A stretch of DNA of 64,000 nt, taken from Candidatus Gastranaerophilales bacterium. Its GTDB lineage: Bacteria > Cyanobacteriota > Vampirovibrionia > Gastranaerophilales > Gastranaerophilaceae. Position 1 is the stretch's first letter; every line of letters begins with the position of its first letter. Below are positions 50,495 to 63,090 of the stretch, piece by piece. The notes beneath the pieces were generated by a model. The model saw only the letters and a program-made list of their open reading frames with translations, had not been told where the DNA came from and ran no database searches. The position numbers and the translations under genes are program-made. The stretch is from positions 22,878 to 86,877 of the forward strand of contig CANQMP010000002.1 in assembly GCA_947624975.1 (NCBI GenBank), given 5' to 3'.

Positions 50495-51823
50495 TTATGA
50501 GAAGATTTTGAAAGTTGTTTCGACGTTTTTGTCAACGACCGATTTAACCGAATCATATTCCGTTTGTAATGCACGGTGTTCGGTATCAAGTTTGTTTAAT
50601 TCCAAATCAAGTCTTTTATCTTTTCTTTCTATGTCAGCCATATCCTGATTATATTTTGTTTCGGCTTCTGCGATTTTTCTTTCGTCTTTAACTTCCTGAA
50701 TACAGTTGTCATCGGAAATTGAAGTTGATTTAAAGGTTTTATCCGCTGTCGAATAGTATTCAATTCTTAATGTTCCGTTTTTCAGAGCTGATTCAAATGT
50801 GAAGTTATCTTTGAGCGGGTTTTTCGCGATTTTGTTTGTGCCTTTTGTATTTTCGGAGTAAATATAGTTGTCATTTGCTTTTGCGGCTGTGTCGGTGTAG
50901 GTAAAGAATCCCGAAGACATGATTTTGTTGAAAATATTTCTGTAATATTTTATTGCGGAATTGTTTGCCGAATCATTTGCGGATTTTAATCCGGATATAT
51001 TGTATCTCGGGCTTAAATATGCTTCGGTTAATGCCATTGCATAATCGTATAATTCTCTTGATTCTTGTGTTGTACCTTCGTAATTTATCGGGTCATAAAT
51101 GTAGTTGCCACTTCCGTCCTGAATGTATCTTGGATTTTCTATATCATCAATAGTAATTTGGTTACCGTTTTCATCAAGTTCGGGGTTTCCTTCTTCATCC
51201 AGTAATGTTTTCTTATTATAAACGACATTACCGCTTGCATCTGTTTCAACTCTTTTGTATCCTGCATAACCGTAACCGTCATTTGTGGTTGTCCATCCGT
51301 AGCCGAAGTTGTGAGGTGCCGTATAATCTATATCATCACCGATGGATTCATAATATTTATCCCAGGCATCATGGATTTTCTTTTCAGCTGCCGCTTGTTC
51401 ATCAGTTCTGTTATCTAAATTTGTGTAATTCATTTTAACATTAATATCGGCTTGCGAATATCCCAGTATTGTCAAAAATTGGTTAAAGTTTCCGTGAGAT
51501 TGACGGAACGCATCGGCGACATTTTCCGTTAAAAGAATTCTGCCTTTTGTATCCGTAATTGCGTATTGTTTGTTTGTTTCCGACATTTGAAGTCCGGTCA
51601 TAAGGTTGTAGGAAATATCTTCATAGTTTGCAATAGCGCCGTTAAAGCCTGTCAAAACCGTTAACTTTGTTGTACTAAGGGCTTCATTGTACTCGTTTGT
51701 CAGCTGTTCTGTTTGATCTGCAAGCCTTTGTTTGGAATAAGAAATATCCTGTCCTGAATTTTCGTTATTCGTCAGTCTGGCTGTAATGCTTAATAATCTC
51801 GCTTGTGATGCTGCCATTCCCAT
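50495..51823 (-). CDS. Hypothetical 'MGMAASQARLL' protein with helical termini and variable core
   Basis: 442-aa ORF; heptad-like N- and C-termini, no Sec signal, one Cys. Confidence 0.8.
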   Translation of the reverse strand: MGMAASQARLLSITARLTNNENSGQDISYSKQRLADQTEQLTNEYNEALSTTKLTVLTGFNGAIANYEDISYNLMTGLQMSETNKQYAITDTKGRILLTENVADAFRQSHGNFNQFLTILGYSQADINVKMNYTNLDNRTDEQAAAEKKIHDAWDKYYESIGDDIDYTAPHNFGYGWTTTNDGYGYAGYKRVETDASGNVVYNKKTLLDEEGNPELDENGNQITIDDIENPRYIQDGSGNYIYDPINYEGTTQESRELYDYAMALTEAYLSPRYNISGLKSANDSANNSAIKYYRNIFNKIMSSGFFTYTDTAAKANDNYIYSENTKGTNKIAKNPLKDNFTFESALKNGTLRIEYYSTADKTFKSTSISDDNCIQEVKDERKIAEAETKYNQDMADIERKDKRLDLELNKLDTEHRALQTEYDSVKSVVDKNVETTFKIFS

Positions 51824-51857: not shown

Positions 51858-51886
51858 ATCTACGGTCTTTTTGTGCAAAAACTTTA
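51858..51886 (-). promoter_or_regulatory. Putative sigma28-like promoter
   Basis: TAAAGTTT-N12-ACCGTAGA about 35 nt before ATG 51823; same spacing as 60235-60262. Confidence 0.5.
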
Positions 51887-52012
51887 ATAATTCGCGGATA
51901 TTATTAAGAACTTGTAACAATTTTTAAGCTTAATCTTAACAAAAACTTCATAAAGTATTTAAAAATTTGTTTGTTTAAGTTAATCTAATATGTTGTTGAA
52001 TGGAGATGTAAA

Positions 52013-53389
52013 ATGTATAACGTAGCGATAATAGGAGCAGGCCCCGCAGGAATTTTTGCGGCTTTGGAAATAATGAAATTAAAACCTGACTGGAAAGTGG
52101 TTTTGATAGAAAAAGGACAGCGTATTGAAAAACGTAAATGTCTGCTTCGTGAGGGTTGGGACAAGTGTCCGACTTGCAAAAAATGCGGTTTGCTTTGCGG
52201 TTGGGGCGGTGCAGGTGCTTTTTCAGACGGTAAATTAACATTAACCCCCGATGTCGGCGGTCATCTTGTGGATTATATGAACAGAGATAAGGTCGAAGAT
52301 TTAATCGCTTACGCAGACAAATTATATCTTGATTTCGGTGCAACGGATGAAGTTTTCGGAACTGATGTAAATACTTTCAGAGAACTTGAAAGACAGGCAT
52401 CACTTGCGGAGTTGAAACTCGTTTATTCACCCGTCAGACATTTGGGGACGGAAAGAAGTTTGAATGTCTTAAAAAGCATGCAGGATTATCTTGATAAGAA
52501 AATTACGATAATCAACGATGTTTCCGCCCGTTCGCTTATCGTTGAATGTAATCAGGTCAAAGGTATTGAGCTTGATAACGGTGAAACGATTTGTGCGGAA
52601 TATACAATAATAGCCCCCGGCAGAGAGGGTGCTGACTGGCTTACGCAGGAATTTTCAAAAAACAAAATCGGAATGGTTAATAATGCGGTCGATGTCGGTG
52701 TTCGTGTAGAGCTTCCCGCTCCCGTTTTTGAGCCGTTGACGGACAAATTGTATGAATCGAAATTGATTTATCATTCGCCGACTTTCGGAGATGAGGTAAG
52801 AACTTTCTGTATGAACCCGAACGGTGAAGTCGTTCAAGAGAATTATAACGGAATTTCAACGGTTAACGGTCACAGCTATGCCGAAAAAACTACAAATAAC
52901 ACAAATTTTGCACTGCTTGTCAGCGAAAAATTTACCGAACCTTTTAAAGAACCCATTCAATACGGTCAGCATATTGCAAGGCTTGCGAACATGCTTGCGG
53001 GCGGAATTTTAGTTCAGCGTTTCGGCGATTTGCTTGACGGACGGCGTTCTACACCAGACAGAATTAAAGCAAGCATAATTAAACCGACGCTCACAAGTGC
53101 GACCCCCGGAGATTTGAGCCTTGTTATTCCTTACAGACAGATGACAAGTATTATTGAAATGCTTTACGCTCTGGATAAAATTTGCCCCGGAGCGGCTTCA
53201 AGATACACGCTTCTTTACGGTATAGAGGTTAAATTCTACTCAGCACGCGTAAAACTTACCGACAAACTTGAAACCGAAGGCGTTAAAAACCTGTTTGCTA
53301 TCGGAGATGGTGCGGGTGTAACCAGAGGACTTATACAGGCTTCCGCATCGGGTGTTTATGCCGCAAGAACGATTTGCGAAAGAGGTTAG
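52013..53389 (+). CDS. NAD(P)/FAD-dependent oxidoreductase (uncharacterised family) with Cys cluster
   Basis: [51 protein letters not shown]. Confidence 0.88.
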
Positions 53390-54261
53390 AGTAAATTCCT
53401 CAAATATGTATAATACTCGTTATTTTTGTACTGTTCAATATTTTTGAGCAGAGTTTCTGCCGATAAAAATCCCATTCTGTAAGCAATTTCTTCAAGGCAG
53501 GCAATTTTTATACCCTGATTTTCCTCTATTGTTTTTACATACTGACTTGCTTGCAAAAGTGAATGGTGTGTCCCCGTATCGAGCCATGCAAAACCGCGTC
53601 CGAGAAGTTCTACGTTTAACGAATTATTTTTGAGATAAATATTGTTCAAATCCGTTATTTCAAGTTCGCCTCTGGCTGAGGGTTTCAAGCTCTTTGCATA
53701 TTTAACGGCTTTGTTATCGTAAAAATATAATCCCGTAACCGCATATTTTGATTTCGGATTTTGCGGTTTTTCTTCAAGTGATACGACTTTTCCGTTATCA
53801 TCAAATTCAACGACACCGAATCTTTGCGGATCTTTTACGGGGTATCCGAAAACGGTCGCTCCTCCTTTTGTTTCAATTCTTTTTACCACATTTTTCAAAA
53901 TACCCGAAAATCCTCCGCCGTAAAAAATGTTATCGCCGAGGATTAGTGCGGAATTGTCGTTTCCGATGAAATCTTCCCCGAGAATAAATGCTTGTGCAAG
54001 TCCGTCCGGTGAAGGCTGAACTTTATATGAAAACTTTACGCCAAATTGACTTCCGTCTTTTAAAAGTCTTTCAAAATTAGGTAAATCCTCGGGAGTTGAG
54101 ATGATAAGAATTTCTTTTATCCCCGCAAGCATGAGAACCGAAATCGGATGATAAATCATCGGTTTATCGTAAATCGGTAAAAGTTGTTTTGAAACCGAAA
54201 TTGTACTCGGGTAAAGTCTTGTGCCCGCTCCGCCTGCTAATACTATTCCTTTCATAATCAC
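53386..54261 (-). CDS. rfbA: Glucose-1-phosphate thymidylyltransferase
   Basis: [52 protein letters not shown]. Confidence 0.97.
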
Positions 54262-54307
54262 TCCTTTTTATTTGATTATATTGTAAAAATAGTATTTTGC
54301 AAGGAGC

Positions 54308-54832
54308 TTATTCTATTTCAAATTTTTCTGCTTCTTTGTTAACGAGTTCCATGTATTTTTTGTTATTTTGTTCGGCAAATTCAACCGCATTTTTCCTTGT
54401 ATCTTCTCGTGTTGCGTTTTCAGATACGTAAAATCTTTTTGCAAACCCGAATTTTTCAAGTTCGTTTTTACCTTTTTTAAAAACTATTGCAGAGTATTCG
54501 TAATAATCGTTTGCGGGTTTGAGATATCCGACAACACCCGCATCAGGGTACACAAGCACCGAGGCTGAAGGGTTTTCCGATTGAATTTCGTGTGCAAATT
54601 CGGCTGCGGCTTCCGTTGCACTCTGCATATCCGTTACCTCTTTTAAGTTCAATTTTGTGTGCCAATTTCCGATATTTTCATCTTTTAAAAGATAATCGTA
54701 ATCCTTTGTTATGCTGTCAGGATTTGATAAATGATAAGTTTCTCCGTCAAATTTAATTTTGTTTTCCATAGCCTCTCCCGTTTGTGCCAAAACCATAAAA
54801 TTCAGCAATAATATCAGCAATATTTTTTTCAT
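54308..54832 (-). CDS. Hypothetical exported protein
   Basis: Signal peptide MKKILLILLLNFMVLAQTGEA. Confidence 0.7.
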   Translation of the reverse strand: MKKILLILLLNFMVLAQTGEAMENKIKFDGETYHLSNPDSITKDYDYLLKDENIGNWHTKLNLKEVTDMQSATEAAAEFAHEIQSENPSASVLVYPDAGVVGYLKPANDYYEYSAIVFKKGKNELEKFGFAKRFYVSENATREDTRKNAVEFAEQNNKKYMELVNKEAEKFEIE

Positions 54833-54937
54833 TTGTTCTCACCTCTGATATATTATTTTATGATATTTGTTAATAATTCTATTGCCCATATTGTTAGTAA
54901 ATGTATTTTTATGTATAATTATAGCGGGAGGTAAATT

Positions 54938-55483
54938 ATGCCGTTTGAATTTGAAAAACAAGCAATAGAGGATGTAATTCTTGTAAAACCCAAATTAATG
55001 GGAGATAATCGCGGTTTTTTTATGGAAACTTATAAAAAATCGGATTTTTTCGCAAACGGTATAAATGTAGAGTTTGTTCAGGATAATCATTCAAAATCAT
55101 GCTCTCATGTTTTACGCGGACTGCATTTTCAAAAACCTCCTTACGCTCAGGCAAAGCTTGTAAGATGTTCAAAGGGTAAAATTTACGATGTTGCGGTTGA
55201 TTTGAGAAAGAATTCAAAGACTTTTGCAAAATACGTGAGAATTGAGTTATCCGAAGAAAACAAACATTTACTCTATATTCCTGAAGGTTTTGCACACGGG
55301 TTTGTTGTACTGTCTGATTTTGCGGAAATTATCTATAAAACGAGCAGTGAGTATAATCCTAATGCGGACTGCGGGATTTTTTGGCGTGATAAAGATTTGA
55401 ATGTTGACTGGGGAATTGATTTTGAACCGATATTGTCGGAAAAAGACAAATGTCAACCCGAATTTAAGGAGATTATATTATGA
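54938..55483 (+). CDS. rfbC: dTDP-4-dehydrorhamnose 3,5-epimerase
   Basis: DNRGFF, FVQDNHS.S..VLRGLHFQ, QAKLVRC, GFAHGF. Confidence 0.96.
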   Translation: MPFEFEKQAIEDVILVKPKLMGDNRGFFMETYKKSDFFANGINVEFVQDNHSKSCSHVLRGLHFQKPPYAQAKLVRCSKGKIYDVAVDLRKNSKTFAKYVRIELSEENKHLLYIPEGFAHGFVVLSDFAEIIYKTSSEYNPNADCGIFWRDKDLNVDWGIDFEPILSEKDKCQPEFKEIIL

Positions 55484-56460
55484 AAATACTTGTAACAGGC
55501 GGTGCAGGATTTATCGGAAGCTGTTTTGTAAGGAGAATGCTTAAAGAGCATCCTCAATACAAAATTATAAATCTTGATGCATTGACTTATGCGGGAAATA
55601 TCGAAAATCTTAATGATGTTAAAGATAATCCGAATTATACGTTTGTTCACGGGAATATTTGCGACAAAAAACTAGTTCCGCAGTTGGTTGAAGGGGTTGA
55701 TGCGGTTGTGAATTTTGCGGCAGAAAGTCACGTTGACCGCTCGATTACGGGGCCTGAAATATTTATTGAAACAAATGTTAAAGGGACTTTAAATCTTTTG
55801 CAGGCTGCAAAACAGTTTAATATTGAAAGATATTTGCAGGTTTCAACCGATGAAGTTTACGGAACTTTAGGAAAAACGGGCTATTTCACGGAAACGACAC
55901 CGCTTGCACCAAACAGTCCTTATTCTGCTTCAAAAGCTTCTGCCGATATGCTTGTCAGAGCTTATTATGAAACTTATAAAATGCCTGTGTTAACGACAAG
56001 ATGTTCCAACAATTACGGACCTTATCAATATCCCGAAAAACTTATTCCGTTTTTCATTTCAAAACTTTTGCGAGGTGAAAAAGTTCCCGTATACGGCGAC
56101 GGTTTAAATGTTCGTGACTGGTTATTTGTTTATGACCATTGTGCGGCTATCGATACGGTCTTACATAAAGGCAGAACGGGCGAAGTCTACAATATCGGCG
56201 GTCATAACGAAAAAACAAATATCGAGATTACAAAATTAATTCTTGAGGCTATGGGTAAAGACGAAACCTCTATCGAATACGTTAAAGACAGGCTCGGGCA
56301 TGACAGACGTTACGCCATCAGCAACGACAAAATTCAATCGGAACTCGGCTGGAAACCGTCTTTGACTTTTGAAGAAGGTATTAAGCTCACTATTGATTGG
56401 TATTTGAATAATCAGGACTGGATTAAAAAAATAGAGGCTAAAAAAGAGGTGCTTGTATGA
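55480..56460 (+). CDS. rfbB: dTDP-glucose 4,6-dehydratase
   Basis: TGGAGFIGS, NFAAESHVDRSI, STDEVYG, SPYSASKAS, RCSNNYGPYQ.PEK. Confidence 0.97.
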   Translation: MKILVTGGAGFIGSCFVRRMLKEHPQYKIINLDALTYAGNIENLNDVKDNPNYTFVHGNICDKKLVPQLVEGVDAVVNFAAESHVDRSITGPEIFIETNVKGTLNLLQAAKQFNIERYLQVSTDEVYGTLGKTGYFTETTPLAPNSPYSASKASADMLVRAYYETYKMPVLTTRCSNNYGPYQYPEKLIPFFISKLLRGEKVPVYGDGLNVRDWLFVYDHCAAIDTVLHKGRTGEVYNIGGHNEKTNIEITKLILEAMGKDETSIEYVKDRLGHDRRYAISNDKIQSELGWKPSLTFEEGIKLTIDWYLNNQDWIKKIEAKKEVLV

Positions 56461-57275
56461 AGGTTCTTGTAACCGGTGCAAACGGCATGCTGGGTCAGGA
56501 TTTATGCCCTGTTTTTGAAGATGCCGGTGCTTTTGTTATTGAAACTGATGCAGATACGCTTGATATTACGGATAAAGAAACGGTTGATAAAGTTTTAAAT
56601 GACATTCATCCCGATTTGGTTGTGCATTGTGCCGCTTATACCAACGTTGATAAGGCTGAGGAAGATTTAAAAACGGCAAGACTTATAAATTCCAACGGCA
56701 CGGAAAATATTGCCAAAGCTTGCGGAAAGCTCGGGATTACTCCGGTTTATATTTCAACGGATTACGTGTTTGACGGCACGAAAAATGAACCTTACATGCC
56801 TGATGACAAGCCAAATCCCCTAAACAATTACGGTTTGACAAAGCTTGAAGGTGAAAACGCAGTCAAAAAATATTGTGAAAAATATTATATTGCAAGGACT
56901 TCGTGGCTTTACGGTCATCACGGTAAAAATTTTGTTGAAACTATGCTTTCATTAGCCGATAGACCTGAAATTAAAGTCGTTGACGACCAGATAGGCTGTC
57001 CGACATGGACTGTAGAGCTTGCAAACGGTATTTTGAAACTTCTTTCAAAACCTTACGGAACTTACCATGTTTGCGGGTCGGGATTTGTGAGCTGGTTTGG
57101 GTTTGCAAAAGAAATCTTTGAACGCAGCGGGTTAAAAGTAAACCTTTTGCCATGCAAAACGGATGAATTCCCACGTCCTGCAAAACGCCCGCATTACAGC
57201 GTTATGGAAAACAATTCCCTATGCAGAAACTGGCAGAGTGCATTGCAAGATTATTTAAAACTCAGGGATTTTTAA
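56457..57275 (+). CDS. rfbD: dTDP-4-dehydrorhamnose reductase
   Basis: TGANGMLG, CAAYTNVD.AE, STDYVFDG, YG.TK..GE, VDDQIGCPT. Confidence 0.96.
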   Translation: MKVLVTGANGMLGQDLCPVFEDAGAFVIETDADTLDITDKETVDKVLNDIHPDLVVHCAAYTNVDKAEEDLKTARLINSNGTENIAKACGKLGITPVYISTDYVFDGTKNEPYMPDDKPNPLNNYGLTKLEGENAVKKYCEKYYIARTSWLYGHHGKNFVETMLSLADRPEIKVVDDQIGCPTWTVELANGILKLLSKPYGTYHVCGSGFVSWFGFAKEIFERSGLKVNLLPCKTDEFPRPAKRPHYSVMENNSLCRNWQSALQDYLKLRDF

Positions 57276-58219
57276 TTTTCTATCAAAAGGCTTGCCCCTA
57301 TAACGCCTGCCGTGTTGCCCAACTGAGCGGGAACGATTTGAACGGCTTCGCCTGCAATTTTCATCGCACGTTTTTTGAGCGTATCTGCAAGCGGTTTCAA
57401 AAGCCATTCGCCTGCATCTGCAACACCGCCGCCGACAATTATTCTTTCGGGGTTCAAAAGATTAACCACGCCTGCCATACCTATTCCGATGTATTCTCCG
57501 ATTATGGCAAAAATCCTTTGAGCAACGGGGTCGCCTGATTTTGCGGCTTCACATACTATGTAAGGTGTTATCGGATCACGATTAGCCATTTCTCTGAATT
57601 TTGCGGATTTACCGCCTTTTATATAAGTTTCAGCCATTGCAACTATTGAGGGGCCTGATGCAAAAGCTTCCATACAACCCGTATCTCCGCATCCGCAAAT
57701 CGGGCCGTCATGCATTTGTAATTTGATATGACCGATTTCTCCTGCTGCGTTTGATGCTCCGCGAACGAGTTTTCCGTTTATTATGAGTCCCGAACCTATT
57801 CCTGTTCCGACGGTTATACAAATCAGATTTTCACAGCCTTTGCCCGCTCCGTAGTTAAGTTCGCCGAGTGCCGCACATCTTACGTCGTTATCCACTCTTG
57901 TCGGAATGTGAAATTCATCTTCAATTAATTTCGCAATAGGAATTTCTACCCAGCCGGGGATGTTCGGGGCATTTCTAACAATTCCCGCTTTATAATCCAC
58001 CTGTCCCGGGAATCCGAAACCTATTCCTTCAACATCTTTATTTTTTAATTTTGTGTCTTTTAAAAGGTCATATATAGCCTGTTTGATATTGCTTATCGTG
58101 TATTCATACCCCATCTCGGCACGTGTGGGTGTGGAATTTGAATATAAAATACTTCCTTTTTCATCGACCAGTGCTATTTTTACGTTTGTTCCGCCAACGT
58201 CTATTCCTATTCTGTTCAT
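57272..58219 (-). CDS. ROK-family sugar kinase (glucokinase)
   Basis: GIDVGGT, DNDVRCAALGE, VGTGIGSG, AGEIGH, CGCG..GCMEA.ASG. Confidence 0.92.
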   Translation of the reverse strand: MNRIGIDVGGTNVKIALVDEKGSILYSNSTPTRAEMGYEYTISNIKQAIYDLLKDTKLKNKDVEGIGFGFPGQVDYKAGIVRNAPNIPGWVEIPIAKLIEDEFHIPTRVDNDVRCAALGELNYGAGKGCENLICITVGTGIGSGLIINGKLVRGASNAAGEIGHIKLQMHDGPICGCGDTGCMEAFASGPSIVAMAETYIKGGKSAKFREMANRDPITPYIVCEAAKSGDPVAQRIFAIIGEYIGIGMAGVVNLLNPERIIVGGGVADAGEWLLKPLADTLKKRAMKIAGEAVQIVPAQLGNTAGVIGASLLIEN

Positions 58220-58315
58220 TTATTTTCTCCCTTATATTTCTAATTTTATAACAAAAATTACAATAAACAATTATTAAATTGAAATTATCATTAAAAAGTG
58301 TGGTATAATATAAAT

Positions 58316-58792
58316 ATGTACAGGATAGGATTAGGGTACGACATACATAAATTGACACAGGGTCGGGATTTAATAATCGGTGGTGTAAAAATTACTCATG
58401 AAAAAGGGCTTTTGGGACACTCTGATGCCGATGTTTTAATTCATGCCATAATTGATGCGATGCTCGGGGCGTTGTGTATGTCTGACATCGGAACACTTTT
58501 CCCCGACAGCGATAAACTTTACAAAGACATAGACAGCACAATTCTTCTGAAAAAAGTTTATGCTCTGGTAAAAGAAAAAAAATTTGTAATAGAAAATATT
58601 GACAGTAATATTATTGCTCAAAAACCTAAAATGATGCCTTACATTCCGAAAATGAAAGAAGTTTTATGTTCAATACTAGAGCTTGAGCAGGACAAACTTT
58701 CTATTAAGGCAAAAACGAATGAAAAAATGGATGCGGTGGGACAGGAACTTGCTATCGAAGCCCATGCCGTTGTGCTTTTGAAAAATGATTAA
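58316..58792 (+). CDS. ispF: 2-C-methyl-D-erythritol 2,4-cyclodiphosphate synthase
   Basis: RIGLGYDIH, GHSDADV..HAIIDAMLGA, DIG..FPD, KAKTNE. Confidence 0.96.
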   Translation: MYRIGLGYDIHKLTQGRDLIIGGVKITHEKGLLGHSDADVLIHAIIDAMLGALCMSDIGTLFPDSDKLYKDIDSTILLKKVYALVKEKKFVIENIDSNIIAQKPKMMPYIPKMKEVLCSILELEQDKLSIKAKTNEKMDAVGQELAIEAHAVVLLKND

Positions 58793-59450
58793 AAATCTCA
58801 GACAAAGACTTGTTAATATATCCGAGGAAGGTTACAAAAGATTTTCTTCATCACTTTTGCCGAACGTTGATAATGTTTTGGGCGTAAGACTTCCGATTTT
58901 AAGAAAAATTGCCAAAGAAATATATAAAAGCGGCTGTTTTGAGGAATTCGTAAAAAATTATGATTGCAAATATATGGAAGAAACTATGCTTCAAGGGATG
59001 GTTATCGGGCTAATAAAATCATCCGACTGGCTTGATTATGTAAAATTATTTATCCCGAAAATCAATAACTGGTCTGTTTGTGACAGTTTTTGCTCGTGCT
59101 TAAAAATGACACTGCAAAATAAGAAATGCGTTTGGAATTTTATTCAGCCGTATTTTAAATCGGATGAATTTGGCAAACGATTTGCGTTTGTAATGCTTTT
59201 GACATATTTTATCGAAGATGAATTTATTGATGAAGTATTTAAACGTATTGATGAGTTTGATGACAAGCGTTATTATGCACAGATGGCTTGTGCGTGGGCA
59301 GTTTCCGTGTGTTTTGCAAAATATCCGCAAAAAACTCTTAACTACATGAAAAATTCTAAGCTCAACAGTACAGCTTATAAAAAATCCGTTCAAAAAATCC
59401 GTGAATCTTTACGTGTGGATTTAAAAACGAAAGAGATGTTAAAGTCTTAA
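58785..59450 (+). CDS. DNA alkylation repair (AlkD-like) protein
   Basis: LGVRLP.LRKIAK, INNW.VCD, YYAQMACAWA.S. Confidence 0.85.
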   Translation: MIKNLRQRLVNISEEGYKRFSSSLLPNVDNVLGVRLPILRKIAKEIYKSGCFEEFVKNYDCKYMEETMLQGMVIGLIKSSDWLDYVKLFIPKINNWSVCDSFCSCLKMTLQNKKCVWNFIQPYFKSDEFGKRFAFVMLLTYFIEDEFIDEVFKRIDEFDDKRYYAQMACAWAVSVCFAKYPQKTLNYMKNSKLNSTAYKKSVQKIRESLRVDLKTKEMLKS

Positions 59451-60181
59451 AGGCTAAAGTTAAAATTCAGGATAATAACGAGTTCATCGTTAAAATAATT
59501 TTCGGGAAAAGGTTTAAACGGTACCGCAGAATTGATAGCGTTTCCCGCATTGTTATCCAATTCTTTTATTTTTGAGGATTTTAGGACTCTGCATTTTTTA
59601 ACCGTTCCGTCTGAAGCGACAGTCAGGGCAATTTGTACGAGCAAATCTTTTTTACCTTTGGCAAGTACGTCGATTTGTTTTCTCGGCGGAACTTTCCAGG
59701 CTTTATAAACTTTTTCTCTGACTTCTTTTGCGTAAGGTTCATAATCAACGTATTTTCCGTCAGCCCCGAAGATAAACGACCGATTATCCGACACGAATAT
59801 TTGTACCGCACGAAGGTTTCCTGACGGGTAGTCGTACATTATACGGCATTTTTGCAGTTCGGGCTTGCGAAATGCGATGTATTTAAGTTCGTTTGTATCG
59901 TTGTCATAAATAAGCTCAGCACCGCTCATTTTAACGTAATGATAAGCTTTGCTCTGCGTGCCGTCATCGGGAATAAGCGTAAAATCGTGGTAATATTTCG
60001 GATACTTATATGTTTTAATACTCGGTTTAACCGTGTTAAATATTACCGATAAAGTTTCGTTAACCTTTTCATACTCGGCACTTTGTGATTCCTTTAATAA
60101 TTGCGGTTTAATTTTTTCCGCACAAAGCGACGGCATACCCGTAAATATCAATAATAAACACAGTAAAAGGATTTTCTTCAT
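59447..60181 (-). CDS. Exported protein with TonB C-terminal domain
   Basis: Signal peptide; W..P, V..DG.V....V.KSS...LD..A..AI..A.PF.PFP. Confidence 0.75.
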   Translation of the reverse strand: MKKILLLCLLLIFTGMPSLCAEKIKPQLLKESQSAEYEKVNETLSVIFNTVKPSIKTYKYPKYYHDFTLIPDDGTQSKAYHYVKMSGAELIYDNDTNELKYIAFRKPELQKCRIMYDYPSGNLRAVQIFVSDNRSFIFGADGKYVDYEPYAKEVREKVYKAWKVPPRKQIDVLAKGKKDLLVQIALTVASDGTVKKCRVLKSSKIKELDNNAGNAINSAVPFKPFPENYFNDELVIILNFNFSL

Positions 60182-60234
60182 AGAGAAATTGTACCATAAA
60201 AATTACAATATGTAAAAAATCGCCCCCAAAAGTT

Positions 60235-60262
60235 TAAAGTTTTTGGTATTAAATGCCGTTAT
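60235..60262 (+). promoter_or_regulatory. Putative sigma28-like promoter
   Basis: TAAAGTTT-N12-GCCGTTAT, versus sigma28 consensus TAAAGTTT-N11-GCCGATAA. Confidence 0.55.
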
Positions 60263-60312
60263 TTGACTTATTCATAAAAAACATTAAAAAAAATCATGAG
60301 AGGTCTAGGGAT

Positions 60313-60798
60313 ATGTCGTCAATAAGTTCAATACATGTTCAATCGTCGGCGTTTTCATCCTGCAAGGGTGAAGAACTTAGTGTTACGACAAAAATGCGTC
60401 TTGAAGCACTGGGTATAGACCCGTCATCGGTTACATCGGAGGCACAGGCACAAATTATAATTGCACAAGCCGAAGCTTCTCAACGTCAGAATAATTCAGG
60501 TAAACAGCAAGGAGGTAATACATCACAACAGCAGTTGATCTTTGAGGCAAAAGAACTTGCACGAAAAACAGGCACTTTTGTTTCAGAGCAGGATACGTTA
60601 GATGATATGCTGGACAAAATTTCTAAAAAATTAAATTCGCTTGCACAAAATCCGCAAAACGCAGAAAAGGTTCAAAGCTATCAATCGGAACTGTTAAGCC
60701 TCGCTCAAAGAGCCAATGTCGCTGTACAAATACAAGAGAATATTTTTAACACGATGGATATGATATCTGTCAGCAATAAACTTATATTGGGTTTATAA
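60313..60798 (+). CDS. Hypothetical Ser/Gln-rich helical protein
   Basis: MSSISSIHVQSSAF...LEALGIDPSSVTSEAQAQ; start at 60313 preferred over 60253 because of the purine-rich SD-like stretch before it. Confidence 0.7.
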   Translation: MSSISSIHVQSSAFSSCKGEELSVTTKMRLEALGIDPSSVTSEAQAQIIIAQAEASQRQNNSGKQQGGNTSQQQLIFEAKELARKTGTFVSEQDTLDDMLDKISKKLNSLAQNPQNAEKVQSYQSELLSLAQRANVAVQIQENIFNTMDMISVSNKLILGL

Positions 60799-60810: not shown

Positions 60811-60850
60811 AAAAAAATGCAGACCTTCAAATTTGAGGGTCTGATTTTTT
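60811..60850 (+). terminator. Intrinsic terminator
   Basis: CAGACCTTCAA-AT-TTGAGGGTCTG flanked by A- and T-runs. Confidence 0.75.
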
Positions 60851-60933
60851 ATAAATAATTCTCATAAATATCCTCACGGGCAGTAAAATTTCTCTTTATA
60901 TTCAAAAAGAATATTTTTGAAAAGAGGATTTTT

Positions 60934-63090
60934 ATGAGAAAAATTTTTATATTATCGGGAATTTTGCTTTATTTAATCAGCCCCGTATTATCGGAAGAAC
61001 TTTTAAAACAGCAGTCAAAGTATCCTGATTACGGCTATATGTACCTCGGTGCGGATAAATATGAAAAGTTAAACAGAAAAATGTTTAATTTTAATTTGGG
61101 TTTAAACAAATATGCCATTAGACCCGTTCATATTCTCTGGGCGTCTGTTATGCCCGAATACGGAATAGAACGAATTCAAAGTGCTTACCGAAATATTGAA
61201 TATCCGAAAAGACTTATGAGCAGCCTTATTCAAAAGGATTTCAAAACTTCAAAAAATGAAACGATAAGGTTTTTAACGAACACAACTCTCGGACTTGGCG
61301 GAATGTTTGACCCTGCAAAGAGATTTTTAAAAATTGAACCGTCAAGTGAGGATATGGAGCAGGCTTTGACAAAATGCAAATGTAATCAAGGACCTTATAT
61401 CGTACTTCCCGTAATGTCAGGTACTACAACCCGTGCTATTGCGGGAAAACTCCTCGATACTTCACTAAATCCGACAACTTACGTTGCAACACCTGTTCTT
61501 GCGATGGTAAAGGCGGGTTTGACGGTTAACAGAACTTCTTACATTCAGCCGTTAATCAAAATGATTGAATCGACTTACGCAGACCCTTACGAAATCGCCC
61601 GCAAAATGTACGGACTTAACAATTACATTAAATCCGAAAACTATGACAGAAAAGAGATTTTTGATACATCAGAAAGTACCGATTTGCCTGATAATCCCGA
61701 ACTTGTCGAAAACAATTTGAATAACAGGGAAGAAAGTTCCGACAATGACGATTTAACCGTGGCAGATATTATCAAGGGCGGAGCTAATATTGATAACATT
61801 TTATTAAAAAGTTATAACGCAAACAATTCACGACTTATGGCGGATATGATTTTGTACGATTATAATCCGCAGTCGCCCGTTGTTGATTCAATGAGAACGG
61901 CTCTTTTCGACCTGCCTGAAATAGATAAATCTTTTTGGAACGAACTCTCAATTTGGAACAGAAGTTTTGCAAAACAAATAAAAACGTCCTCGGTATCGGT
62001 AACGCCTGATAAAGAGGAATATAAATTCAGATACATAATGCAAAAGGATAAAAATTCTCCGCTTGCGATAATTTATCCCTCAATAGGTGAAGGTATTCAA
62101 TCACATCATTCCGTTGTTATGGCAAAACTCTTTTACGATGCGGGATATTCGGTCGTAATTCAGGGAAGTCATTTTCAGTGGGAATTTGTGAAAAGTATGC
62201 CCGATGATTACAAACCCGGAATTCCGTCCCGTGATGCGGATTATCTGCTATCCGTTACATCGAAAATTATTTCTCAGCTTGAAGATAAATACGGTTGCAA
62301 ATTTCCGTCAAAGACATTTTTGGGGACTTCTTTCGGTGCAATGGCGGCACTGTTTGTTGCAGATAAAGAATACAAAAATAATACGCTCGGAAATACAAAA
62401 TATATCTCAATTTGCCCGCCCATAAATCTTTTGTACGCTATGGAGCAGGTTGATAAAAACAGTGAAGAATGGAGTCATCTGGATAATTTAAAAGAGCAGG
62501 CGGCACAAACTGCCTCAAAAGTCGTTCAGCTCACCGATATGAAAGATGAAAACAAAGATTTTCATATCGGTACTTTACCTTTCACGGATGAAGAAGGTAA
62601 ACTTATAACCGGATTTATTATGCACCAAAAACTTTCTGATTTAATTTTTACGCTTGAAAAAACTCCGAAAAATAAGTCAACCGATATTTACCAGACGATT
62701 AATAACATGAATTACAAAGACTATGCACAAAAATACCTGCTCTCCGACGGAAATAAAACATTCGATGAGCTTGAGGATGAAACGAATCTTTTATCGGTTT
62801 CGGATTATTTGAAAAATGCTTCAAATTATAAAATTTACCATTCACTTGACGATTATTTGGTAAATCAAAATTTGCTCAAAAAACTTAAAATCTGCACGGG
62901 TAAAAAGACGACTTTGCTGAGTAACGGTGCACATTTAGGGTTTATGTACACACCAGAATTTCTTGAAGATTTCAAAAAAGAAATTTCGCTCACAAAAGAA
63001 ACTGATTTACAGCAGAATTTGAGTTCCGATGATAATTCTGTGGCTGTCCTGCCCGTTTTCCCTGTCGCAGAAAACGTAATTAAGGATTAA
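60934..63090 (+). CDS. mlaA: MlaA/VacJ-family protein fused to an alpha/beta hydrolase domain
   Basis: D.YEKLNRKMFNFN, RFLTNTTLGLGGMFDPA, GPYIVLPV.G.TT.R (MlaA); GTSFG, DDYL, GAHLG (hydrolase triad). Confidence 0.75.
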   Translation: MRKIFILSGILLYLISPVLSEELLKQQSKYPDYGYMYLGADKYEKLNRKMFNFNLGLNKYAIRPVHILWASVMPEYGIERIQSAYRNIEYPKRLMSSLIQKDFKTSKNETIRFLTNTTLGLGGMFDPAKRFLKIEPSSEDMEQALTKCKCNQGPYIVLPVMSGTTTRAIAGKLLDTSLNPTTYVATPVLAMVKAGLTVNRTSYIQPLIKMIESTYADPYEIARKMYGLNNYIKSENYDRKEIFDTSESTDLPDNPELVENNLNNREESSDNDDLTVADIIKGGANIDNILLKSYNANNSRLMADMILYDYNPQSPVVDSMRTALFDLPEIDKSFWNELSIWNRSFAKQIKTSSVSVTPDKEEYKFRYIMQKDKNSPLAIIYPSIGEGIQSHHSVVMAKLFYDAGYSVVIQGSHFQWEFVKSMPDDYKPGIPSRDADYLLSVTSKIISQLEDKYGCKFPSKTFLGTSFGAMAALFVADKEYKNNTLGNTKYISICPPINLLYAMEQVDKNSEEWSHLDNLKEQAAQTASKVVQLTDMKDENKDFHIGTLPFTDEEGKLITGFIMHQKLSDLIFTLEKTPKNKSTDIYQTINNMNYKDYAQKYLLSDGNKTFDELEDETNLLSVSDYLKNASNYKIYHSLDDYLVNQNLLKKLKICTGKKTTLLSNGAHLGFMYTPEFLEDFKKEISLTKETDLQQNLSSDDNSVAVLPVFPVAENVIKD

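Follow-up and report, generated by a model that had tools for sequence, protein, structure and literature searches.

Two sigma-28-type promoters and a probable FliA regulon of orphan genes in a Gastranaerophilales bacterium

Two orphan genes in a 64,000-nucleotide (nt) stretch of a Candidatus Gastranaerophilales genome (GenBank assembly GCA_947624975.1, contig CANQMP010000002.1, positions 22,878 to 86,877; the whole stretch is called the window below) are preceded by the same two-box element, and both sites are very probably sigma-28 (FliA) promoters within a regulon of about 30-35 promoters. One gene, P0001, belongs to a set of paralogues recognised by the N-terminal signature MGMAASQARLL (the MGMAASQ family), and the other, P0002, encodes a small orphan protein. 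The class 3 (late) flagellar promoters of Escherichia coli and Salmonella are read by FliA/sigma-28 (PMC2859248, PMC4183435), and the E. coli consensus is TAAAGTTT-n11-GCCGATAA (PMC2859248). Neither the Pfam family Flagellin_N nor FliG_C has a match in the genome studied here. We compared it within a sample of 81 Gastranaerophilaceae genomes, this one included, in which the flagellar sigma factor is universally kept (81/81) where Pfam flagellin is not (42/81).

The two sites and the motif across the genome

On the minus strand, TAAAGTTTTTG occupies 51886-51876 and is followed by the ten-base gap cacaaaaaga and by CCGT at 51865-51862. On the plus strand, the same TAAAGTTTTTG stands at 60235-60245, ahead of the gap gtattaaatg and CCGT at 60256-60259. 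All 15 specified positions and the spacing are identical at the two sites. An earlier sequence-only reading of the window had placed a sigma-28-like motif at exactly these coordinates, equally spaced and ahead of two orphan genes; measured to the ATG codons at 51823 (P0001) and 60313 (P0002), the distances are 38 and 53 nt. The word orphan also holds, as neither protein belongs to a Pfam or NCBIfam family and their homologues, which number hundreds to thousands, include none with a functional name and are at most called 'hypothetical protein'. Compared with the sigma-28 consensus, the -35 box matches TAAAGTTT at 8/8 positions at both sites. The -10 box of P0002, GCCGTTAT, matches GCCGATAA at 6/8 positions, and that of P0001, ACCGTAGA, at 4/8 with the CCG core intact (coordinates in Table 1). 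Transcripts would accordingly be predicted to start near 51853-51850 for P0001 and near 60268-60271 for P0002. Beyond the 25-nt motif, identity between the two regions is 33%, where chance alone would give about 27%; they are therefore not copies of one segment.

The genome scan proposed in the sequence-only reading covered 1.909 Mb (36.6% G+C), with the reversed genome and a third-order Markov shuffle as controls, and found the motif enriched over both and placed upstream of genes in the same orientation. The exact 15-position pattern occurs three times, against none in the reversed control and approximately 0.01 expected from base composition. With a relaxed scan the same two boxes are seen to precede dozens of genes, with the local consensus TTAAAGTTT-N12(11)-GCCG(A/T)TA(T/A), and a strict regular expression gives 25 matches compared with one in the reversed genome. 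These 25 seed sites were used to make a fixed scoring matrix; re-estimating the matrix iteratively had let the matches drift upwards, from 58 to 201, and was dropped. At a score of at least 18 bits the matrix has 39 matches in the genome, 6 in the reversed genome and 2 in the Markov shuffle; at 20 bits or more the counts are 34, 4 and 2. Eighteen of the 39 matches lie 5-150 nt upstream of a co-oriented longest-open-reading-frame (ORF) start, where 7.8% would be expected (p = 1.6e-10), and counting in-frame internal starts as well raises the number to 26 of 39. The end of the -10 box is mostly 17-61 nt from the start codon. A spacer of 12 nt, as at both window sites, is dominant in this genome, and 11 nt is the minority form. 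One 17.5-bit match inside the rmlA coding sequence, near window position 53729, was treated as spurious.

Regulon content and conservation among relatives

Ten MGMAASQ paralogues were found in the genome by their N-terminal signature, and each of the ten has a site 31-45 nt upstream (seven strong, three degenerate). Motif discovery upstream of these paralogues, also suggested in the sequence-only reading, was carried out as an unbiased count of 5-mer/gap/4-mer dyads in the 100-nt upstream regions. TAAAG-N15-GCCG ranked first and was shared by eight of the ten, compared with a maximum of four sharing any dyad in random sets of ten upstream regions.

Besides all ten paralogues and the P0002 family, the regulon includes an HD_5 and GAF protein of the HD-GYP type, an MgtE_N-domain protein, an SLT transglycosylase encoded directly beside flhA, and an Amidase_3 protein with LysM domains. 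It further includes a LysM protein of 2503 amino acids (aa), a 940-aa RHS and EF-hand protein, a 1658-aa protein without an assigned family, and many ORFs of 46-165 aa without a family. An N-terminal hydrophobic segment is found in none of 30 regulon products, compared with 24% of all genome ORFs of at least 100 aa. The SLT, Amidase_3 and LysM proteins share this lack, which matters because such cell-wall enzymes must leave the cytoplasm to act. Among the strongest sites, those of 26-28 bits at C15:22565, C10:15023 and C3:7527 precede tiny ORFs of 52, 57 and 48 aa, respectively, with good ribosome-binding sites, and the 52-aa peptide is kept behind the same promoter in the relative G003 (L142).

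Across the 81 genomes the strict motif has 297 matches, against 10 for the reversed control. At P0001-family loci of other genera, 18 of 27 score at least 12 bits within 150 nt upstream, compared with 1.2% of random windows, and the sites are mostly 34-56 nt upstream. Orthologues of P0001 in these genera carry TAAAGTTT-N12-GCCGTAA(T/A) at the same distance, with -10 boxes of the GCCGTAAT type. The motif is likewise kept at about 15 of the 27 scored P0002 orthologous loci of other genera, 38-74 nt upstream of proteins that are only 30-50% identical. Spacer length varies by genus: N12 is dominant here and in G018, and N11 in the flagellated G002, G003 and G062. Flagellated G003 has 15 strict sites, which lie ahead of orthologues of regulon genes found here (the HD-GYP protein, a 90-aa ORF, the 52-aa peptide, and the EF-hand and RHS protein) and of other orphans; none of the 15 precedes classical late flagellar genes.

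The P0001 family is present in 80 of the 81 genomes, with a median of 4 matches in flagellin-positive and 11 in flagellin-negative genomes. Of the 42 flagellated relatives, 41 have it alongside true flagellins, and it is therefore, by sequence, not a replacement flagellin. P0001 as a divergent flagellin was rejected on two further grounds: its family profile recovers no flagellin among PDB sequences, and indeed has no detectable similarity to any PDB sequence, and an hhalign comparison with the flagellins of the Gastranaerophilaceae themselves gives a probability of 0.1%.

Two observations concern individual relatives. In G038 a short, 246-aa MGMAASQ member (L147:8659-9399) with an 18.3-bit sigma-28 site is divergent from a fliE-fliF-fliH-flhA operon of the class B type described below. 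Canonical flagellin genes at L113, L114 and L119 (relatives G052, G044 and G039) have no sigma-28 -10 box and share the element (T/A)AAAGT(A/T)(T/C)-N11-AACTTT approximately 90-130 nt upstream, which could be another conserved promoter or upstream sequence kept by inheritance.

Reader of the motif and role of the regulon

Eight sigma-70-family genes are present in the genome, and only one of them encodes a FliA-family sigma factor. This 275-aa protein (C40:4074-4901) scores 233.7 bits against TIGR02479 (FliA/WhiG; cut-off 189.6) and 219.6 bits against NF005413 (cut-off 201). We infer that it is the reader of the motif, in which case FliA-loaded RNA polymerase would read both window promoters and the rest of the regulon. 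The genome also encodes much of a flagellar-type machine. A single operon holds FliE, FliF, a 337-aa protein in the FliG position, FliH and FlhA, and four rod proteins, FliP, a FliN-like protein and one MotA/ExbB homologue are found in addition. Neither fliA nor the fliE-fliF-fliH-flhA operon has a sigma-28 site upstream, which points to the classical order, in which the machine genes would be expressed first and the sigma-28-dependent late genes second.

Full-length FlhA splits into two score classes among the sampled genomes. Class A (855-885 bits) is present in the 42 flagellin-positive genomes and in no others, and class B (about 696-736 bits) in nearly all 81, so that flagellated relatives carry two flagellar-type export gates. 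The only full-length FlhA of the present genome (C16:4804-6897, 729 bits) is of class B. Because class B is present in nearly all genomes, flagellated or not, the apparatus here is, judged by this sequence comparison, a conserved second flagellar-type system and not merely a decayed flagellum. Elsewhere in the genome, at C8:23623-25074 (outside the window; L038:5624-7075), a 483-aa protein corresponds to the cytoplasmic C-terminal part of FlhA alone (FHIPEP positions 307-653). It has no membrane domain and no sigma-28 site upstream, and many genomes of the family encode equivalents of 485-505 aa.

The products of the regulon could be late substrates or accessories of this flagellar-type type III export apparatus. 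That they are secreted structural proteins exported through it is a realistic prospect that we rate a little short of probable, on the basis of the missing Sec signals, the presence of the apparatus and a precedent in Campylobacter jejuni, for which non-flagellar proteins have been shown by experiment to use the flagellar type III system for export (PMC2764114, PMC5223770). As in the C. jejuni secretome, the proteins considered here have no Sec signal, are tied to a flagellar regulon and are proposed to exit through a flagellar export gate. However, C. jejuni has a complete motile flagellum and experimentally demonstrated export, whereas here there is no flagellin and export is deduced from the genes. 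A wider proposal, which we make tentatively, is that a second flagellar-type type III machine, one with class B FlhA and no role in motility, is conserved across gut Gastranaerophilaceae with or without a true flagellum, and that the regulon supplies its cargo and accessory proteins. FliA would then be retained mainly to drive this machine, whose secreted or surface-assembled products would be the MGMAASQ family (expanded in flagellin-less genomes), P0002, and the giant RHS and LysM proteins.

The sequence-only reading had proposed a shared alternative-sigma regulon of secreted structural proteins. Its first half is borne out by the genome-wide enrichment, the FliA gene, the sites at all ten paralogues and the conservation across genera. 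The second half is plausible rather than demonstrated: the absence of Sec-type N-termini in 30 products and the export apparatus speak for it, and the dissimilarity of P0001 to flagellin, the lack of a fold relative for P0002 and the non-structural genes in the regulon speak against it.

Several observations weigh against these conclusions. Among 20 canonical flagellin genes from flagellated relatives, only about 4 have a recognisable site (34-39 nt upstream), which makes the flagellin genes an equivocal positive control. The P0001 site is weak owing to its -10 box ACCGTAGA (14.5 bits, against 26.4 bits for the strong P0002 site), and the assignment to FliA rests on likeness to the sigma-28 consensus of distant phyla. 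The genome also encodes a second group-3 sigma factor, of SigF type (contig C12, 258 aa; NF005644 186.6 bits, below the cut-off), and the anti-sigma factor FlgM was not found in a search of the genome, where the sole weak match (contig C14, 17.5 bits) lies in an unrelated 96-aa ORF. As to export, P0001 and P0002 have no similarity to any known export substrate, and an MGMAASQ member adjoins the machine operon in only 2 of 21 genomes (G038 and one of 20 further genomes), so a general linkage of the family to that operon was rejected.

The promoters may be true sigma-28 promoters and yet serve a cell-cycle, cell-separation or envelope programme, in which the MGMAASQ coiled-coil proteins and P0002 would be intracellular. 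The amidase with LysM domains, the SLT transglycosylase and the HD-GYP-type signalling protein would suit such a programme, as would the retention of FliA irrespective of flagellin and the dissimilarity of P0001 and P0002 to any known exported axial protein. There are also parallels in other bacteria, in that sigma-28-family regulons exist in non-flagellated bacteria (Chlamydia sigma-28, and Streptomyces WhiG with its developmental genes) and autolysin genes are under SigD in Bacillus subtilis. As in Chlamydia and Streptomyces, a FliA/WhiG-type sigma factor is kept here for non-filament genes, and as under SigD the regulon contains cell-wall hydrolases. The present genome departs from those cases in also retaining a complete flagellar-type export gate, MS-ring and rod, and in having a regulon in which a multi-copy family that lacks signal peptides predominates. 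We regard an envelope programme with intracellular products as rather unlikely, given that the cell-wall enzymes have no signal peptide yet must leave the cytoplasm, that the genome has a conserved flagellar-type export apparatus but no filament gene, and that the SLT gene of the regulon directly adjoins flhA.

It is improbable that the motif is read by another factor, either the SigF-like sigma of contig C12 or a DNA-binding regulator, and that its likeness to sigma-28 promoters reflects partial convergence. The existence of the SigF-type gene, the lack of the motif at most flagellin genes of flagellated relatives and the dominant spacer of 12 instead of 11 could be taken that way. Yet the sigma-28 consensus is reproduced almost to the letter in both boxes, orientation and start-codon distance are as in a promoter, and the single FliA-family sigma factor is universal in the family; known SigB/SigF-type promoters, moreover, have different boxes (GTTTAA...GGGTAT and similar). 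A chance match in AT-rich intergenic DNA would be conceivable at 36.6% G+C, where T/A-rich -35-like strings are common, as would a duplicated upstream segment. Both are refuted by the statistics and the comparative data: the exact pattern is found three times for about 0.01 expected and none in the control, the enrichment is 6- to 19-fold over the controls at 18 bits or more, the flanks and spacer are unrelated, and the site is kept at orthologous genes whose proteins share only 30-60% identity. Sigma-28 promoters read by FliA remain the reading that we favour for both window sites.

Set against the class 3 promoters of E. coli and Salmonella, the sites have the same -35 octamer and a CCGATA-type -10 core, and they lie upstream of monocistronic late genes while the machine genes are without a site. 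They differ in that the spacer is mostly 12 rather than 11 and the -10 box is often GCCGTTAT or GCCGTAAT, and in the make-up of the regulon, which is mostly lineage-specific orphans and has no gene for flagellin or chemotaxis and no recognisable flgM. As far as the accessible text of two accounts of the Gastranaerophilales goes, many genomes of this order keep a subset of flagellar genes, for which a secretion role has been postulated (PMC4040986; preprint 10.64898/2026.04.24.720558). The lineage and the partial flagellar gene retention are the same here. The promoters, the sigma-28 regulon, the candidate cargo and the two FlhA classes are not mentioned in that text, and the kept set as seen here is of the second FlhA class, additional to the canonical flagellum of the 42 flagellated genomes.

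The promoter turns the published suggestion of secretion into a testable list, with some 30 genes under joint control here and a motif that is recognisable family-wide. Should the products be exported, a lineage widespread in human and animal guts would have an undescribed secretion route with these proteins as its cargo; otherwise, the genome would still have a clear sigma-28 regulon rewired to non-flagellar genes.

The two genes and their surroundings

The coordinates of the two genes, their promoters and a terminator-like hairpin are given in Table 1. The likely ribosome-binding sites are AAGGA at 51837-51833 for P0001 and GAGAGG at 60298-60303 for P0002.

Table 1. Features of the two transcription units in the window
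Feature	Position	Strand	Description
Sigma-28-type promoter of P0001	51859..51886	-	-35 TAAAGTTT 51886-51879; 12-nt spacer 51878-51867; -10 ACCGTAGA 51866-51859; matrix 14.5 bits
P0001, MGMAASQARLL-type paralogue	50495..51823	-	442 aa; conserved N- and C-terminal helical ends, variable middle, no signal peptide
Sigma-28-type promoter of P0002	60235..60262	+	-35 TAAAGTTT 60235-60242; 12-nt spacer 60243-60254; -10 GCCGTTAT 60255-60262; matrix 26.4 bits
P0002, orphan all-helical protein	60313..60798	+	161 aa; no Pfam or NCBIfam family
Intrinsic terminator-like hairpin	60820..60853	+	10-bp stem, then T-run

The longest ORF for P0002 starts at an ATG at 60253, and the corresponding 181-aa form is on record in the protein collection. 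Homologues of P0002 are mostly 155-167 aa long, which favours the start at 60313. The 181-aa form is probably a wrongly called start, because the homologues are shorter and the -10 box falls inside its N-terminal extension (60253-60312). The 161-aa protein begins with 20 residues that are rich in Ser and disordered in the model, has a Q/N/G-rich linker at residues 57-69, and carries the conserved NIFN.MDMISVSNK..LGL at its C-terminus. The AlphaFold2 model is all-helical and of moderate quality, with a predicted local distance difference test (pLDDT) score of 65. A profile search with P0002 against PDB sequences gave only designed helical proteins (E about 0.01), and a Foldseek search with the model against the PDB gave no match below E = 1.

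P0002 was also considered as a candidate for FlgM. It has no FlgM domain by Pfam or NCBIfam, and its family is present in 36 of the 81 genomes compared with FliA in all 81; because of this patchy distribution, P0002 is unlikely to be FlgM and the candidate was rejected on phyletic pattern.

Farther downstream on the same strand, window positions 60934-63090 encode a 718-aa protein in which an MlaA lipoprotein domain is confined to residues 40-226 and the next approximately 490 residues have no family match. Between this gene and P0002 lies the terminator-like hairpin of Table 1, which, from its sequence, would close a single-gene transcription unit of P0002.

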